40,096 nucleotides of DNA, taken from the NCBI GenBank assembly GCA_050122795.1, contig JASFIG010000003.1, positions 1 to 40,096 of the forward strand. Reading direction: 5' to 3'. Below are positions 588 to 7,349 of the stretch, one piece after another (within the stretch, counting starts at the first letter, position 1; every line of letters begins with the position of its first letter). Source of the stretch: Desulfobacterales bacterium. Its GTDB lineage: Bacteria; Desulfobacterota; Desulfobacteria; Desulfobacterales; JAHEIW01. A program made the position numbers and the translations under genes. The notes under the pieces were generated by a model that did not search any database, was not told the DNA's origin, and saw only the letters and a program-made list of their open reading frames with translations.

Positions 588-1199
588 ATGAAAGTACTGG
601 TTGTTTTTTATTCGACTTACGGGCATGTCTATCAAATGGCCGAGGCGGTTGCTGAAGGCGTAAAACAAGTAGCCGGCGCTGAAGTCGACATCCGGCGGGT
701 GCCGGAGACCTTGCCGACGGAGGTACTGGAGAAAATGGGCGCCGTCGACGCCCAAAAAGCATTTGCGCACATACCTGAATGCACAGTGGACGAGCTGGCA
801 CAGGCGGATGCCGTTATCTTCGGCACCCCGACCCGCTTTGGCAATATGTGTGGCCAAATGCGCCAATTTTTAGATGCCACCGGACAGCTATGGGCAAACG
901 GGTCACTGGTGGGCAAGGTCGGCAGTGTTTTTACCTGCAGCGCCACCCAGCACGGCGGACAGGAATCGACCATTTTGACCTTTCATGTCACCCTGCTGCA
1001 CCACGGTTTCGTGGTGGTGGGCCTGCCGTATGCATTTAAGGGCCAGATGCGAGATGATGAGATTACCGGAGGTTCTCCATACGGCGCCTCGACGATTGCC
1101 GCTGGGGATGGCTCGCGCATGCCCAGTGAAAACGAATTGGAGGGCGCCCGCTTCCAGGGCAAACACGTAGCCGAAATTGCGACGAAGCTAGCAAATTAA
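588..1199 (+). CDS. wrbA: NAD(P)H:quinone oxidoreductase WrbA
   Basis: [21 protein letters not shown] and GGSPYGA motifs; AGGAGG RBS upstream. Confidence 0.95.
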
Positions 1200-1241
1200 G
1201 GGTTCCTAGTTTTATTGCAAACAAGCTTTTCTGAACACATC

Positions 1242-1317
1242 GTGGGAGCGGCTTCCAGCCGCGAATAAAGACCCAATACTCCCTTATCCGGAGATCGCGG
1301 CTTAAAGCCGCTCCCAC
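1242..1317. repeat. Inverted pair of REP-like palindromes (REPIN-like)
   Basis: GTGGGAGCGGCTTCCAGCCGCGA at 1242-1264 and its near reverse complement TCGCGGCTTAAAGCCGCTCCCAC at 1295-1317; same family recurs at 9774-9868. Confidence 0.8.
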
Positions 1318-1339
1318 CGTACAAATCGAGGTAAATCGC

Positions 1340-2203
1340 ATGAAGCATCAAGTGCGAAATGTGGCCCGGATCATCGAGCCTCGACCGGTGCTCGAAGGTG
1401 CCGGCGTGCGGCTCATCAGAAGCATTGCCACCGCCGAGCTGGATCATGTCGATCCATTTTTGCTGTTTGATCATTTTGGATCCAGCAACCCCGAAGATTA
1501 CATCAAGGGGTTTCCCATGCATCCACATCGCGGCATTGAAACCGTCACATACATGATACATGGTAAAGTAAAGCATAAAGACAGTATCGGTAATTCCGGA
1601 AGCATAACTGACGGCGATGTCCAGTGGATGACATCCGGCCGGGGGATTCTGCACGAAGAAATGCCCCAGCAAATTGAAGGTGAAATGAAGGGCTTTCAGC
1701 TGTGGGTCAACCTTCCGGCCAGACTCAAAATGACCGCTCCGCGCTACCAGAATATTACATCCGATCAAATACCGGAAGTTCAACAGGATGGTGGCGTCAT
1801 CATCCGGGTTATCGCCGGTGAAGTCGACGGTACCAGCGGTCCGGTAAAAGAGATTGTCGCCGATCCGATCTATCTGGATGTATCCGTTCCCCCAAACACC
1901 TATTATTCACAGGGGGTGGCCAGCAATCACGCCGCTATCGCCTATGTCTTCGAGGGTGGCGGCGATTTTGGCGCAAACGGCAGCTCACGGGAATCCGTGG
2001 TTGGACATCCACGCATGATTGTCTTTGGTGGCGGGGATCTGGTATCGGTCCGCGCAGAAGACCAAGGTGCGCGCTTTCTGCTAATCGCAGGTAAGCCCTT
2101 GAATGAACCCATCGCTCGCTATGGGCCGTTTGTGATGAATACCCAGGCGGAGATTGAGCAGACCCTGGACGATCTGAGAAAGGGAAATTTTATTCGGAAT
2201 TGA
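1340..2203 (+). CDS. Pirin family protein
   Basis: EGAGV, DPFLLFDHF, GFPMHPHRGIETVTY, WMTSGRGILHEE, FQLWVNLP and YGPFVMN motifs. Confidence 0.95.
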   Translation: MKHQVRNVARIIEPRPVLEGAGVRLIRSIATAELDHVDPFLLFDHFGSSNPEDYIKGFPMHPHRGIETVTYMIHGKVKHKDSIGNSGSITDGDVQWMTSGRGILHEEMPQQIEGEMKGFQLWVNLPARLKMTAPRYQNITSDQIPEVQQDGGVIIRVIAGEVDGTSGPVKEIVADPIYLDVSVPPNTYYSQGVASNHAAIAYVFEGGGDFGANGSSRESVVGHPRMIVFGGGDLVSVRAEDQGARFLLIAGKPLNEPIARYGPFVMNTQAEIEQTLDDLRKGNFIRN

Positions 2204-2313
2204 CTTCCATGTCATCATCTTTTACCGCTGTCTTGAAGCCAATTCCTATTAGAAGTCGTTTCAAAACCATTTATTATAATAAAATCCTTGGCAAATGCGT
2301 GGAGACCTGCTTA

Positions 2314-2808
2314 ATGATCTATCGCAAAACGATAAAAGAACTTATCATTCTGGTGGGTGTTTCGGTAATACTGGCGCTGGCGGTTAACCACCTGTCGCCC
2401 AGAGGTATTGCCCTGGTGGGACAGTGGGAAACGGCAAAAGGCGTTATGACAGCCGACGCCATGGATGATGATAAATATCGCATTGCAGAAATCGACCGGG
2501 TGACCGATGCCGCAAAAATATTTTACGATGATGATACCCTTTTTGTGGACGCACGCTCGACTGAGGATTATGAAAGCGGCCACATCCCGGGAGCCGTATC
2601 ATTGCCGGTGGGCCAATTTGATGAACGGATTGAAGTGTTCATGAAACAGGTCCCGCTGGATCAGCCCATCGTTACCTATTGCTCGGGCCGAACATGCGAA
2701 GACAGCCATCAACTGGCCCGGTTGCTCATGGAGGCCGGGTTCAGTGAGGTGCGGATTTTTATTGACGGTTTTCCAGGCTGGCAGGCGGAGGGATATCCGA
2801 TTGATTAA
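2314..2808 (+). CDS. Membrane-anchored rhodanese-like domain protein (CxxxxC loop)
   Basis: N-terminal hydrophobic helix, FVDAR, GHIPGA, IVTYCSGRTCEDS, GFPGW. Start moved to ATG 2314 because GGAG lies at 2301-2304. Confidence 0.85.
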   Translation: MIYRKTIKELIILVGVSVILALAVNHLSPRGIALVGQWETAKGVMTADAMDDDKYRIAEIDRVTDAAKIFYDDDTLFVDARSTEDYESGHIPGAVSLPVGQFDERIEVFMKQVPLDQPIVTYCSGRTCEDSHQLARLLMEAGFSEVRIFIDGFPGWQAEGYPID

Positions 2809-3295
2809 CTTGCGACAGGCCATTATCAATAATAGCTGGATCGAACTGGTGGCCCGCTGGATTCTTGGATTGACATTCATATACGCCAGCTTCCACAAAA
2901 TCCTGGCACCGGGGGAGTTTGCCAGAATTGTTTACGGTTATGACCTGTTCCCACATGTTTTCATCAATCTGATCGCCATCATTATTCCGTTTATGGAGCT
3001 GGTTGCCGGATTAGCCCTGATCATTGGGATTTATCCGCGCTCAGCGGCCATTATCATTAATATAATGCTGCTGGCCTTTGTGGCAGCCTTAACGATCAAC
3101 ATCATTCGCGGCCGCGAATTTGATTGCGGCTGTTTTTCTGTTGGTCAGAGCGGATATACCGGCTCATCCGAAGTGACCGTGTTGCGCGACATTCTCTATT
3201 TTCTGTGTGGGATGCTGGTGATATTGTTTGAAGGCAGTCGCAGAGGCTGCCTTGGCCGCCGCTGTTCTTCGAATTCGTCCAATCCTCTATTATAG
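2801..3295 (+). CDS. MauE/DoxX family redox-associated membrane protein
   Basis: About four hydrophobic segments, P..ELVAGLALIIG and DCGCF motifs. In-frame TTG at 2801 overlaps the upstream stop; start is uncertain. Confidence 0.8.
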   Translation: MINLRQAIINNSWIELVARWILGLTFIYASFHKILAPGEFARIVYGYDLFPHVFINLIAIIIPFMELVAGLALIIGIYPRSAAIIINIMLLAFVAALTINIIRGREFDCGCFSVGQSGYTGSSEVTVLRDILYFLCGMLVILFEGSRRGCLGRRCSSNSSNPLL

Positions 3296-3308
3296 TTGGG
3301 AAACATAG

Positions 3309-3515
3309 ATGGCAGACCTGATTTGTTACTGTTTTGAATACACCGCAGAAGACATCCGGCAGGATTGGCTTGAACACGGGCGCTCGACGATTGTTGAAAA
3401 AATCGCAGCGCAAAAGAAAATGGGAAACTGTGAGTGCACCACCAAAAATATCAGCAGCAGGTGATGCTTATCTGACGTCCGCCAGGTGGTGGATCAGATA
3501 AAAAATTCTTGCTAA
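3309..3515 (+). CDS. Small BFD-like (2Fe-2S)-binding selenoprotein, 68 aa, Sec at residue 52; missing from the ORF track
   Basis: Translation with TGA 3462-3464 read through: MADLICYCFEYTAEDIRQDWLEHGRSTIVEKIAAQKKMGNCECTTKNISSR-U-CLSDVRQVVDQIKNSC*. Pattern ICYCF...CxC..KN.S.R(C/U)C matches the CopZ-associated/BFD-like 2Fe-2S domain. Strong SECIS-like hairpin and a downstream terminator. Confidence 0.85.
3468..3501 (+). promoter_or_regulatory. Bacterial SECIS-like hairpin
   Basis: TTATCTGA-cg-TCCGCC-aggt-GGTGGA-TCAGATAA: 8-bp lower stem, 2-nt bulge, 6-bp upper stem, AGGU loop starting 19 nt after the UGA. Confidence 0.75.
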
Positions 3516-3541
3516 ATTCGACAGCTTCGAATTTCTCAGAT

Positions 3542-3583
3542 AGCAGGCAAGGGAAGTGCTTGATCTCCTTTGCCTGTTTTTTT
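3542..3583 (+). terminator. Rho-independent terminator after the small selenoprotein gene
   Basis: AGCAGGCAAGGGA pairs with TCCTTTGCCTGTT (two G-U pairs), followed by a T run. Confidence 0.7.
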
Positions 3584-3584
3584 G

Positions 3585-3631
3585 TTGACAAAAAATATAC
3601 AGTCCCTCATATTCAATAAATCAATTGAATA
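3585..3631 (+). promoter_or_regulatory. Sigma70-like promoter with overlapping ArsR-type operator palindrome
   Basis: TTGACA 3585-3590, 17 nt, CATATT 3608-3613; inverted repeat TATTCAAT-N6-ATTGAATA at 3610-3631 just upstream of the ArsR-rhodanese gene. Confidence 0.65.
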
Positions 3632-3647
3632 CTATAAAGGTGTCAAA

Positions 3648-4325
3648 ATGAAGAATCCAAATCGCGCATTTAAAGATTCCATCTATGAGCAATTTGCTCG
3701 CATCGGCAAGGCGGTTTCCAGCCCCAGGCGTTTGGAACTCCTTGACCTCCTTTGCCAGGGACCTCGAACAGTGGAAGTGTTGGCCAACGAGTCCGGTTTG
3801 ACCATCGCTAATGCCTCCCAGCATCTTCAGGTTTTGCGAGCTGCCCGGCTGGTGGAGGCCGACAAAGATGGCCTGTATGTCATTTATCGGCTTGCCGATC
3901 AGCAAGTTTGCGAGTTTTTCCGGTCTATGCGGTTGCTGGCTGAGAGCCGCCTGGCCGAAGTGGAACAAATCAAAAGTCGTTTCCTGGATGGCAGAGAAGG
4001 AATGATGCCGGTAGACCGTAAAAAGCTTCTAAAACTTGTGCGCGAAGATGCAGTGACCGTTTTGGATGTGCGCCCGTCGGTAGAATACAATGCCGGGCAT
4101 ATTGCCGGCGCTCTATCTATTCCGCTCAAAGAGTTGCAGCAGCGTTTGTCGGATTTACCGCGCCATCAGGAAATCGTGGCCTATTGCCGCGGACCGTATT
4201 GTGTTCTTTCGGTTATGGCAGTGGAAATTCTTCGTTCGCGTGGATTCAAGGCTGTTCGACTTGAAGAAAGTATTCAGGATTTCCGCGCCCTGGGGTTTCC
4301 GATCATTGGAAACGAAAAGGTCTAA
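3648..4325 (+). CDS. ArsR/SmtB-family regulator fused to a rhodanese domain
   Basis: KAVSSPRRLELLDLL, ANASQHLQVLR (winged HTH); VLDVRP, GHIAGA, VAYCRGPYC (rhodanese). Start set at ATG 3648, downstream of the promoter. Confidence 0.9.
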   Translation: MKNPNRAFKDSIYEQFARIGKAVSSPRRLELLDLLCQGPRTVEVLANESGLTIANASQHLQVLRAARLVEADKDGLYVIYRLADQQVCEFFRSMRLLAESRLAEVEQIKSRFLDGREGMMPVDRKKLLKLVREDAVTVLDVRPSVEYNAGHIAGALSIPLKELQQRLSDLPRHQEIVAYCRGPYCVLSVMAVEILRSRGFKAVRLEESIQDFRALGFPIIGNEKV

Positions 4326-4413
4326 GTTCATTTTGCATAGCGAACAAAACACAGCGGGTGAAAAAATAAACCTCTAAACAGATGATTCAATAGGGCAAAC
4401 GGAAAGCCGGGCG

Positions 4414-6150
4414 ATGAGCCGTTTGAAAAAAAATTTGTTGGTGCTGGCAGCTGTATTGCTGACCGTTGGTTATCTCTGGCAGGTCAATCGAGAGGTTGCT
4501 CCCCAAACAGCCACCTGGCAGGATGTGCTGGCGGAAGCCAGTCAAGGCGGTTATCAGTTGATAACCACCGATGATTTAGCCAGCAAGTATAAGGTAAAAC
4601 CGGATTCTATCCTTCTGGTCGATACGCGCCAGGAGTGGGAATACCGCACCGGCCATATAAAAAAAGCCGTAAATTTTCCGATGGAGCCGACCTGGCTGTC
4701 ACGCTGGCGCAACAAAGGTGCCCTCGAAAAATTACTGGGCTCGGACAAAAATCGTTTCATTGTATTTTACTGAGCAGGGCTGGCGTGAGCCCGTAGCGAC
4801 TCGGCGGCCCGGGTGGCCGTAAAGCTTGGTTATCAATATATCTTTCGTGACCCCATGGGCTATCCGGAATGGCATGCCCGGGGGTTGCCGGTTGACAGCT
4901 CCGCGGCCGGTCTTTCTGAAACATCGCTGACCCCCCAACAGTCAAAACCGTTACACGGCTGGGCAATGATCTGGACGCTTTTAGGAATCTTTGCCGGCGG
5001 AATCGCCCTGAACCTGACGCCCTGCATCTACCCATTAATTCCGATTACGGTTTCCTATTTCGGCAGCCAGCGCGCTGGAAGCCAGCGAACGCTCTTCATC
5101 CATGGCGCTTGCTATATCGGAGGGCTGGCAATCACCAACTCTGTGCTTGGCGTGGTAGCAGCGCTGACCGGCGGAATGTTTGGCAGTTTGCTGCAACATC
5201 CGATCGTGCTCGCTGCGGTGGCGGCAGTCCTGGTTATTTTTGCCACCAGTCTCTTTGGCCTCTGGGAAATCCGTCTTCCCTATGCGTTGTCGCAGGCGGC
5301 TTCAAAGACCTATACCGGTTATTTAGGCAGTCTTTTCATGGGACTGACATTGGGCGTGGTTGCTTCTGCGTGTATGGGTCCATTTATCTTAGGCCTGTTA
5401 ACCTGGGTGGCGACGATTGGAAACCTGTGGATCGCATTTTTAATCTTTTTTACGTTGAGCCTGGGTCTTGGCCTCCCCCTCTTTTTGCTGGCGCTGTTTT
5501 CCGGACAGCTGAGCAAACTTCCTCGTTCCGGTGAATGGATGCTGTGGGTTAAAAAGCTGCTCGGCTGGATTTTAGTGGGCATGGGCGTTTATTTTATTCA
5601 GCCGCTATTGCCTGAAACCGCGAGAACTTTCTTGCTGGCCAGCGTGGCTCTGGCAGCGGCATTGCACCTGGGGTGGATAAATCTCAGCCGCGCCGAGTTT
5701 CGTGGATTCGAGTGGATGCGAATCGCGGCTGCAACCGTGGGACTCATCATCGCTACGCTTCTAATCGGGTCATGGGTGCTTCGCGGTCCCGGTGTGGCCT
5801 GGCTATCCTACTCAGAAACATTGCTGGTGGAAGCCCGGCGATTAAAAAAACCGGTGGTGCTTGACTTTTATGCCGACTGGTGCGCCCCCTGCCGTGCACT
5901 GGATAGCGTCACTTTTCATGATCCTGAAATCGTCAAACAGGCAAAAAAAGATTTTGTCATGATCAAGATTGATCTCACCCGCAGAGGCAATCCACTGCAT
6001 GAAAACCTTTTACGCCAATACCGTGTGAAAGGGGTTCCCACCGTCGTATTCCTGGACCGTCAGGGAAAGGAACGAAATGATTTACGTCTGGTAGATTTTT
6101 TACCTGCCGATCAATTTCTTGCACGCATGGCGGCGATTAAAAGCAACTAG
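4414..6150 (+). CDS. Rhodanese / DsbD-transmembrane / thioredoxin fusion selenoprotein with two Sec (U120, U125), 578 aa
   Basis: ORFs 4414-4773 and 4813-6150 are in the same frame. Read-through gives IVFY-U-AGLA-U-ARSDSAARVAVKLGY, the rhodanese CxxxxC loop. DsbD-like TM domain (NLTPCIYP, ASACMGP) and C-terminal DFYADWCAPC thioredoxin. Confidence 0.85.
4804..4820 (+). promoter_or_regulatory. SECIS-like hairpin downstream of the two UGAs
   Basis: GCGGCC-cgggt-GGCCGT; loop starts 21 nt after the second UGA and 36 nt after the first. Confidence 0.5.
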
Positions 6151-6236
6151 CGGCTATTACCGCTGTATCAAAGTAACTGAGATTCCGGAAACGACGGACA
6201 ACGTACAACTGACGACAAACCCCAATGGAGGCAATT

Positions 6237-6509
6237 ATGTTGAAGGTTAGATTTTTTATGAACCTGCCCAACGGCAGGCCGCGAAAGCACTTTAAGAAAA
6301 TGATGCCCAGGTTGGGCGCAAAATTTGATATCGAGATAGAATCGATCGAAAAACCAAAAGACGAATATATGACCGACGAATATTTTGAGCTTGATCTACC
6401 GGTGGCTCCGGCAGTGATGGTGGGCGATGAAATAATCGTTGAAGGATCCGATATTCGTAGGGGAAAATTGGAACGAGCAATCAGCCGTCATCTGGAATCT
6501 TTGACATAG
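6237..6509 (+). CDS. Small thioredoxin/glutaredoxin-fold protein with no Cys or Sec (possible de-selenised homolog)
   Basis: GGAGG RBS before ATG 6237; cis-Pro-type PVAPAVMVGDEIIVEG motif; NLPNGRPR at the position of the redox motif. Confidence 0.7.
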   Translation: MLKVRFFMNLPNGRPRKHFKKMMPRLGAKFDIEIESIEKPKDEYMTDEYFELDLPVAPAVMVGDEIIVEGSDIRRGKLERAISRHLESLT

Positions 6510-7023
6510 GGAATGGTGGCTGAGCGCTTAACCCGGCCCGCATCATCTGACGGACCACCAGATGATGAAACGGGCGAATCAGGTTAAAGTACACCGGTCC
6601 GGTCCAGTGTTTGTAATGCACGATCGTGGCCACATGAAAACGCCGGCGGTTTTCTGCTAAGTGCTCTAGGACAACTCCAAAATAGGCCTTCAGGTGCTTA
6701 TCTTCGGGTGTTTCGCCGACCCAATAGTGTTCTTCTTTAGCAAGCCGCACGGTGAAAAAAGTCACTGCATCACCCGGCACAAAGGACACATCTTCAGCCC
6801 GCAAATTGGGCAAAACTTCTGGCGCCTCATGCTCGACCAGCCCCAGGATCTTAACCAGCACAGTCCGAAACCGATAGAGCCCCACAATCCACCAGGGATA
6901 ATATGACAACATTGCGGCGATAAACTGGCGCAGCGGTGTCGGGCCTTCCACGGCCTTGATATCAACATAATCGGATCGCTCAAACAGTGGGGCCATCTCC
7001 GGAATGTCATCAATCAAGTTCAT
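6481..7023 (-). CDS. DUF2867-like domain protein
   Basis: DYVD..., EDKHL, VHYKHWTGPVYFNLIRPFHHLVV; ATGA overlap with the upstream gene. Confidence 0.75.
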   Translation of the reverse strand: MNLIDDIPEMAPLFERSDYVDIKAVEGPTPLRQFIAAMLSYYPWWIVGLYRFRTVLVKILGLVEHEAPEVLPNLRAEDVSFVPGDAVTFFTVRLAKEEHYWVGETPEDKHLKAYFGVVLEHLAENRRRFHVATIVHYKHWTGPVYFNLIRPFHHLVVRQMMRAGLSAQPPFPMSKIPDDG

Positions 7024-7349
7024 TTGGGTGGCAGGGTTTTGACAAAATTCTTAGCCTGATTTAGCCAGGATTTGAGTTGGTCTTCGCTTTTAAAGGCGCC
7101 CTCTTCTATCATCACCCAGCCCTTCATAGGTTTGCCGGTGATATCAAACGGCCGGGTATGCGCTTTTTTCAGCGCTTCGCTGGATGCCTTTTCCCCTAAT
7201 CGTAAGATAAGATAATCTTTGTATACCCCGCAGACCATATTCCCGCTTAGCAAATGACAGACGCCGCCGAACATTTTTTTGGCATCCGTATTTTTCCAGC
7301 GGCTGACAATCTTTGCGATGCGGGCATCTATCTTTTCATTGTAGGGCAT
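7020..7349 (-). CDS. TfoX/Sxy N-terminal domain protein
   Basis: KKMFGG...GNMVCGV...RPFDITGKPMKGWV; start MPYNE with AAGGA upstream. Confidence 0.85.
   Translation of the reverse strand: MPYNEKIDARIAKIVSRWKNTDAKKMFGGVCHLLSGNMVCGVYKDYLILRLGEKASSEALKKAHTRPFDITGKPMKGWVMIEEGAFKSEDQLKSWLNQAKNFVKTLPPK

Follow-up and report, generated by a model that had tools for sequence, protein, structure and literature searches.

Do two TGA codons that interrupt one reading frame in a Desulfobacterales genome mark a broken gene, or do they encode two selenocysteines (Sec) in a single loop of one protein? The question is raised by a locus in a 40,096-nucleotide stretch of DNA (contig JASFIG010000003.1 of assembly GCA_050122795.1; hereafter the window), in which translation table 11 gives a 119-amino acid ORF (4414-4773) followed by a 445-amino acid ORF from GTG 4813 to 6150. 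Our favored answer, to which we assign a probability of roughly 85%, is that the intact gene, tsoB, encodes an inner-membrane protein of 578 residues and has both of its UGA codons translated as Sec, with a DsbD-like relay leading to the two selenocysteines, U120 and U125, and with a hairpin at 4804-4820 acting as the SECIS. The annotation of this genome is affected, as the two frames split by table 11 would then be one selenoprotein. TsoB would be unusual among bacterial proteins in having two Sec residues within a single loop, and it could hold a natural diselenide on the outer side of the membrane.

One reading frame and a named protein family

The window has a plus-strand frame from ATG 4414 to TAG 6148-6150 with exactly two in-frame stops, TGA 4771-4773 and TGA 4786-4788 (Table 1). 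When these are read through, the frame has 578 codons and its loop reads FYUAGLAUARS. An earlier reading, made from the sequence only, had proposed that the two TGAs join the halves of a rhodanese domain fused to DsbD-like transmembrane and thioredoxin domains. Both proposals held in Pfam searches: the rhodanese match (residues 65-155) spans both TGAs, and it is followed by DsbD_TM (residues 186-398) and Thioredoxin_7 (residues 462-548). Cys versions of the UAGLAU loop were indeed found in two neighboring genes, where CSGRTC and CRGPYC align with it column for column.

The same DNA was present in contigs from three other metagenome runs, each including both TGAs. Contigs X2 (4492-4869) and X4 (4524-4824) showed 0 differences from the window and contig X3 (4524-4852) showed 1; among the matches listed for these runs, there were no variants at either TGA. 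One RNA run contained two 151-nt contigs identical to 5665-5815 and 5824-5974, which is too little to claim transcription.

The protein belongs to a curated family. It scored 978.4 bits against NF045694 (TsoB; cut-off 805), matching profile positions 2-571 of 572, and a search of the genome with this profile gave 966.2 bits at tsoB. The name suggested in the sequence-only reading, TsoB or “rhodanese/DsbD fusion-like selenoprotein”, is thus correct, and its description of a double-Sec UxxxxU rhodanese in place of the DsbD alpha domain agrees with the curated family. The rhodanese domain, the DsbD membrane core and the thioredoxin-like domain that define the TsoB architecture all lie in one polypeptide, and the UxxxxU motif (U120 and U125) arises from two in-frame UGAs in the rhodanese loop. 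A passage of a 2026 review (PMC13188914, citing Haft & Tolstoy 2025, mSystems 10:e0141724) lists TsoB as “rhodanese-like form 5”, with UxxxxU and 2 Sec. Rhodanese, DsbD and Tso are not mentioned in BSepDB (PMC13326102). The family, its motif and its two Sec residues are therefore already named and published, and the gene call is correct and not new. What may be new is the comparative result on two RNA hairpins, as well as a Sec-to-Arg change in TsoC in a Desulfobacterales genome, both described below.

Table 1 Features of the tsoB locus. Positions are those of the window.
Feature	Position	Strand	Details
Membrane-anchored single-domain rhodanese, CSGRTC loop	2200-2808	+	PF00581, 64 bits
MauE/DoxX-family membrane protein	2744-3295	+	PF07291, 91 bits
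ArsR-type HTH and rhodanese fusion, CRGPYC loop	3570-4325	+	Pfam HTH_5 and Rhodanese
tsoB CDS, two in-frame UGA (Sec)	4414-6150	+	578 codons and TAG; NF045694 match
N-terminal hydrophobic segment (residues 7-23)	4432-4482	+	Signal anchor or signal peptide
Rhodanese-like domain with both Sec codons (residues 65-155)	4606-4878	+	PF00581, 47.8 bits
UGA1 (U120)	4771-4773	+	Catalytic-Cys position of rhodaneses; TGA in 105/105 distinct relatives
GGGCU/AGCCC hairpin	4777-4792	+	Present in window, not conserved
UGA2 (U125)	4786-4788	+	Five residues past U120; TGA in 105/105; Cys in P0002
HM, upstream conserved hairpin	4787-4802	+	5 bp, 4787-4791/4798-4802; loop 4792-4797; GAGYC / CGNAGY / GACUC
H2, SECIS-like hairpin	4804-4820	+	6-bp stem, 4804-4809/4815-4820; loop CGGGU, 4810-4814
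DsbD-type membrane core (residues 186-398)	4969-5607	+	PF02683, 138 bits
Thioredoxin-like C-terminal domain (residues 462-548), WCAPC	5797-6057	+	PF13899, 56 bits
tsoC homologue, probable start ATG 6237	6225-6509	+	NF045708, 137.4 bits (cut-off 45)

Conserved UGA codons and genes of the Sec machinery

We searched for relatives of tsoB in two sets of genomes. A profile search found TsoB above the cut-off in 26 of 401 genomes of the phylum, with two TGAs in 30 out of 30 places, and all 26 loci that were fetched encode FYUAGL[AT]U[VA]RSD. A scan of one genome per species yielded 227 relatives, of which 80 further loci were kept, mostly from MAGs of Desulfobacterales, Syntrophobacteraceae and Desulfobulbaceae; every one of these (80/80) carries both Sec sites in the form FYU..L.U.RSD. 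Together, both columns are TGA in all 105 distinct sequences (106 loci). The 26 full-length proteins, which are 54-65% identical to that of the window, share six invariant redox residues: U120, U125, C204, C320, C490 and C493. Directly after U125 the window encodes Ala rather than Val, a residue common to 4 of the other 104 distinct sequences.

As a check, the sequence-only reading had proposed an alignment for Cys/Sec interchange at both sites. Among the best 150 of 1.84 billion representatives in a whole-library search, there was no full-length homologue with Cys at both sites. Only P0002 (52% identity) in this set extends over the rhodanese part. Its residues are Gly at site 1 and Cys at site 2, and it forms an unnamed singleton cluster that scores 802.9 against the TsoB model, just below the cut-off of 805. 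Judged by its sequence, this Gly/Cys form does not fit a strict two-residue redox pair.

The genome encodes protein components of the Sec insertion machinery. Profile searches of the source assembly (84.8% complete, 529 contigs) found SelB (365.8 bits), SelA (618.1 bits) and SelD (365.9 bits) over their cut-offs, and the selD gene itself holds 1 TGA. A tRNA-Sec was not found with Aragorn or Rfam in this incomplete assembly, which has only 26 tRNA genes, such that its absence cannot be claimed; two Rfam tRNA-Sec matches at ~47 bits are tRNA-Ser. TGA is also used as a true stop in this group, with 9 of the 26 tsoB genes taken to end at a TGA at the end of the alignment and the pirin gene in the window terminating with TGA, which excludes a recoded genome. 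Nor are the two stops recent, strain-specific nonsense changes in a lineage without Sec, the contrary case raised in the sequence-only reading, since the TGAs are kept in all relatives examined and SelA, SelB and SelD are present.

Two conserved hairpins behind the UGA codons

How the two UGAs might be decoded was explored in an RNA alignment of 105 nt around both codons, which at first comprised 26 loci and was later extended to 106 (105 distinct sequences), with no gaps. The RNAalifold consensus consists of two adjacent hairpins, HM and H2. The latter is the SECIS-like hairpin noticed in the sequence-only reading, and it proved to be real and conserved: pairing reaches 99.4% over the 105 sequences, and two of its pairs show compensatory changes (alignment columns 45-57: GC 73, AU 26, CG 2, GU 2, other 2; columns 48-54: CG 96, UA 9). 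Its covariation score was reached by 0 of 500 shuffles, and slid registers were only 21-60% paired. In its loop, CG[G/U]GU, the third base is an Arg wobble position restricted to G or U; at the Arg wobble position of the HM loop, all four bases occur. The wobble positions within H2 are also constrained, with V134 having the second-lowest third-position entropy of the Val columns and A132 the lowest of the Ala columns. H2 thus has the features of a bacterial SECIS, namely a short distance 3' of the UGA, compensatory changes and a conserved G/U apical loop. These signals emerge from the comparison of loci, although in the window by itself H2 does not stand out from chance (-10.6 kcal/mol, z -1.10, equalled by 32 of 200 shuffles).

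The 5' arm of HM opens with the G and A of UGA2. This hairpin is 98.1% paired in the 105 sequences, through invariance and G·U pairs only, with no compensatory change. Among the 20 conserved Val and 8 conserved Asp columns, third-position entropy is lowest at V126 and D129, respectively, which are the wobble positions of HM; unpaired four-fold sites near the hairpins have 1.3-1.7 bits. In the window, HM carries a C4790·A4799 mismatch, which is also found in 4 other loci, the two closest relatives included, and both UGAs are kept there. The mismatch results from the Ala codon (GCC) that replaces Val (GUC) after U125, and the same change produces the window form of the hairpin at 4777-4792. The sequence-only reading had suggested that this latter hairpin buries UGA2. 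It does exist in the window DNA (-9.6 kcal/mol, z -1.33, equalled by 15 of 200 shuffles), but the matching helix is not conserved, being 81% paired without covariation in 26 relatives.

Other candidate structures were rejected. A long alternative hairpin (columns 14-30/37-50) was 87.6% paired with many broken cells, and its mis-registered version was 64.7% paired; a downstream hairpin (columns 51-58/66-73) was 82.7% paired with a signal not above that of shuffles. Folding of the window alone against shuffles gave no support (z -0.35 over 70 nt and 0.86 over 40 nt). An Rfam scan of 4600-5000 with E up to 10 found no SECIS family, and its sole match, to a flavivirus element in the opposite orientation (11.2 bits, E 9.6), was a chance hit.

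In E. coli, the minimal SECIS is separated from its UGA by 11 nt, and UGA-to-loop distances of 16-37 nt are permitted in the bSECISearch model. H2 begins 15 nt past UGA2, with its loop starting 21 nt past that codon, and 30 nt past UGA1. The earlier claim that H2 lies at a plausible distance from both codons therefore stands well for UGA2, while UGA1 is only at the limit. This leaves two readings, either a shared SECIS with a collapsible spacer or two elements, and one SECIS shared by two UGAs is one of the two, since HM precedes H2. We tentatively suggest that a conserved two-hairpin RNA device, possibly undescribed, decodes both UGAs, with HM being either a mini-SECIS for UGA1 or a collapsible spacer; we see this as a possibility rather than as the expected outcome. 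In the spacer version, folded HM would leave 14 unpaired nt between UGA1 and the SECIS, and its melting by the ribosome would leave 15 nt between UGA2 and the SECIS, such that a single SECIS would be presented at a near-equal effective distance to each UGA in turn. In our favored reading of the locus, H2 would be the SECIS for decoding and HM, directly upstream, would probably help.

Protein architecture and a proposed electron relay

The structure model of TsoB is confident over the rhodanese part, with a pLDDT of ~90 over residues 40-160. In the PDB, the fold of this domain matches 6mxv, 3nhv, 2hhg and 1qxn. Of the solved rhodaneses, 6mxv and 2hhg match best; U120 aligns with their catalytic Cys, and the U120/U125 loop is two residues longer than theirs, as seen from the gap in the alignment (“caglacars” in TsoB vs “cgg--frs” in the solved rhodaneses). 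A basic N-terminus (R3, K5, K6) precedes the first hydrophobic segment, which is part of a model helix at residues 3-25. The membrane core has two cysteines, C204 (5023-5025) and C320 (5371-5373), and two more helices are predicted past it, reaching residue 458. The WCAPC cysteines are C490 (5881-5883) and C493 (5890-5892), and the best Foldseek matches of the C-terminal domain are E. coli DsbD gamma structures (TM 0.78-0.86, target-normalised; 31-33% identity).

The segment from residue 183 to 458 is predicted to contain eight helices, with the basic loops all on one side. As this number is even, both soluble domains are predicted to be on the same side of the membrane, and the positive-inside rule would place them outside the cytoplasm, like those of DsbD. 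Confidence in the model is low for the membrane part (pLDDT 36-60 over residues 161-220 and 43-69 on to 380), and a contact between the rhodanese and thioredoxin-like domains is suggested by the likeness to DsbD.

From this architecture, we infer how TsoB lies in the membrane, which way its electrons flow, that a diselenide forms and what the substrate would be, as follows. Reducing equivalents would enter TsoB from cytoplasmic thioredoxin and pass to the membrane Cys pair C204/C320, from there to the outward-facing thioredoxin-like pair C490/C493, and finally to the outward-facing U120/U125. The two selenocysteines would cycle between a diselenide (or a Se-S or Se-X adduct) and a diselenol, and would reduce or transfer chalcogen or metalloid species outside the cytoplasm. 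The redox potential of a diselenide is very low, and a thiol-based relay might therefore reduce U120/U125 poorly.

Gene neighborhood

The genes upstream of tsoB bear on the possible substrate. The single-domain rhodanese gene is syntenic in 5 close relatives (57-85% identity) and the MauE/DoxX gene in 6. The ArsR-rhodanese gene is immediately 5' of tsoB in at least 13 related loci; its product scores 43.5 bits against the TsoR model, below the cut-off of 115, and is a probable regulator of the tsoB locus. The presence of an ArsR-type regulator, a MauE-family protein and two CxGxxC rhodaneses points to reactive sulfur or selenium species, or a metalloid, as the putative substrate. A scan of 2000-7200 for promoters and terminators gave counts near those of shuffles (8 vs 5.2; 10 vs 6.4) and did not define an operon.

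The usual context of tsoB in relatives comprises tsoA (LULAxC) upstream and tsoC (NEPNGKPU) downstream. The TsoA motif was present in 19 of 26 loci, and an adjacent TsoA motif was absent in the 16 loci closest to the window; TsoA had no match in our genome, of which the assembly covers 84.8%. The downstream partner is present in the window, but with CGA (Arg) at 6282-6284 where relatives carry TGA (Sec). Of 89 motif matches at the tsoC Sec site in 79 of the 106 loci, 87 have TGA, 1 has CGA (the window) and 1 has TAA. All three DNA runs have their contigs interrupted between positions 6266 and 6283, suggesting that there are variant paths at this point of tsoC. Taken together, the missing TsoA match, the TsoC without a Sec codon and the HM mismatch may mean that the local system is partly decayed.

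Alternative explanations

One alternative is that the TGAs are real stops and that the gene is broken or split into a rhodanese fragment and a DsbD-like protein starting at GTG 4813. Translation table 11 gives exactly these two ORFs, a search of the assembly found no tRNA-Sec, and the neighborhood has a tsoC without a Sec codon and no TsoA. However, the 119-amino acid product would stop just short of the catalytic residue, and conservation across 105 distinct sequences, drawn from many families, extends over the TGAs, the codons between them and the 8 codons from UGA2 to GTG 4813. Just 3' of the TGAs there is a covarying hairpin, SelA, SelB and a Sec-type SelD are encoded, and the same sequence recurs in contigs of three other runs. 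We therefore consider a split gene highly improbable. Accepting that the TGAs are decoded, each could have an element of its own, with HM serving UGA1 and H2 serving UGA2. The near-equal spacings (13 nt from UGA1 to HM and 15 nt from UGA2 to H2) would suit such an arrangement, as would the CG that opens both loops, the near-complete pairing of HM and the placement of its wobbles at the most constrained Val and Asp sites of tsoB. Against it, HM shows invariance and G·U pairs without compensatory change, its loop varies (CGNAGY) and lacks the conserved G-U of the H2 loop, and it is mismatched in the window and 4 other loci that keep both UGAs; moreover, a bacterial UxxU family reportedly uses one SECIS for two UGAs. 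Separate elements are, in our assessment, unlikely.

A different alternative accepts both Sec residues but not their redox role. The U-x4-U motif could be a soft-ligand site for a metal or metalloid (Hg, As, Cd, Cu, Te or Se) outside the cytoplasm, with the DsbD-like relay only keeping the selenols reduced. The complete and conserved DsbD-type relay is more than ligand reduction needs, the CxGxxC spacing in the catalytic rhodanese loop is kept by all three local paralogues, and the cluster in the window contains no metal transporter or resistance gene. Yet the usual regulator of the operon is curated as the “ArsR/SmtB-type metalloregulator TsoR” and the local one has an ArsR-type HTH, the Sec loop is two residues longer than in 6mxv and 2hhg, and the non-Sec homologue P0002 retains one of the two sites. 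A passage of the 2026 review (PMC13188914) further proposes that Sec in several new families may be a metal-binding ligand. A metal-ligand role for the two selenols is thus a serious alternative, if a rather less probable one than the redox role in our favored reading, in which U120 and U125 are the end point of the relay.

Comparison with known systems

The locus resembles other TsoB systems (NF045694) in its full-length match above the cut-off, its three-domain architecture, its UxxxxU motif and the tsoC directly downstream. It differs from the usual TsoB loci in that TsoA was not found in the genome, an ArsR-rhodanese fusion replaces TsoR upstream, the partner TsoC has Arg at its Sec site, and Ala instead of Val follows U125.

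Two Sec residues a few positions apart in one redox motif are also a trait of SelL and of Prx-like UxxU selenoproteins. SelL, reportedly described by Shchedrina and colleagues in PNAS in 2007, is said to form a diselenide and to have one SECIS serving two UGAs. Unlike TsoB, it has a thioredoxin fold and a spacing of two residues rather than four, and is soluble with no membrane relay. UxxU sequences in a Prx-like family have been noted in marine metagenomes, as stated in an earlier report (PMC2398784).

With respect to the rhodanese part, the closest parallels are Sud of Wolinella succinogenes and two other solved structures. Sud acts in the periplasm. It is a polysulfide-sulfur transferase (PDB 1qxn) and, like 6mxv and 2hhg, has the same fold as the rhodanese domain of TsoB, whose first Sec occupies the catalytic-Cys position. 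What sets these proteins apart from TsoB is a Cys in place of Sec, a loop of six residues that has no second nucleophile, and the lack of a membrane relay.

The remainder of the protein is most like E. coli DsbD, having a two-Cys membrane core and a CxxC thioredoxin-like C-terminal domain closest to DsbD gamma. The DsbD alpha domain is N-terminal and immunoglobulin-like; it is absent from TsoB, where a two-Sec rhodanese domain takes its place. The match to the DsbD model (NF001419) reaches 266.1 bits, less than its cut-off of 330, and is limited to residues 158-575, which means that TsoB has the membrane and gamma parts in common with DsbD, and not alpha. On these grounds of domain content, TsoB would work like DsbD yet is not a member of the DsbD family.

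Arginine codon at the selenocysteine site of tsoC

The window carries a homologue of tsoC, the small selenoprotein gene family found downstream of tsoB, with CGA (Arg) at positions 6282-6284, where the TsoC family has its Sec codon. Across 89 motif matches in 79 of the 106 comparison loci, this site is TGA in 87, TAA in one (locus L065) and CGA only in the window; CGA and TGA differ by a single base. The window's closest relatives (L043-L047) retain TGA. The CGA codon has three possible origins: Sec may truly have been lost here, the site may vary within the population, or the assembly may be wrong.

We found the surrounding region (6129-6283) to be variable among metagenome runs. Contigs from all three other runs stop at 6266 and restart at 6283, all three runs hold a G6278A variant, and in contigs of two of the three, 39 other letters stand in place of positions 6130-6236. 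Related strains therefore coexist, with polymorphism both in the spacer between tsoB and tsoC and at the beginning of tsoC.

Some relatives (L017, L020, L024, L034) have a tandem pair of TsoC-like small selenoprotein genes downstream of tsoB; the second type is marked by N[ED]PCGLTU(K)R, a motif that includes an additional Cys.

Features of the window and of two genomes
Feature	Coordinates	Strand	Details
WrbA-type NAD(P)H:quinone oxidoreductase and pirin genes	588-2203		WrbA, 336.6 bits
Membrane-anchored rhodanese	within 2200-4325		CSGRTC
MauE/DoxX-family membrane protein	within 2200-4325
ArsR-HTH/rhodanese fusion	within 2200-4325		CRGPYC
tsoC homologue	6225-6509	+	NF045708, 137.4 bits
SelD, window's genome	G000:C14:4114-5037	-	one in-frame TGA
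tsoB, relative's genome	G360:C14:444866-446519		model positions 4-291 and 278-554

TsoB homologues, selenophosphate synthetase and gene neighbourhood

Among the best 150 matches in a library of 1.84 billion representatives, the sole full-length TsoB homologue without Sec was a metagenome protein of 591 aa (P0002), a singleton cluster. Its loop, FYGADLSCDRSD, has Gly at site 1 and Cys at site 2, and its TsoB model score (802.9 bits) falls slightly below the 805-bit cut-off. One relative's tsoB looks like a frameshifted copy, since its model match falls into two overlapping pieces. The single in-frame TGA in SelD of the window's own genome identifies it as the Sec-containing form of selenophosphate synthetase.

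The WrbA and pirin genes lie immediately 5' of the rhodanese block, with the WrbA synteny kept in two close relatives (L043, L047). The block itself, which is clade-specific, precedes tsoB both here and in close relatives, in the place that tsoA occupies in other lineages.
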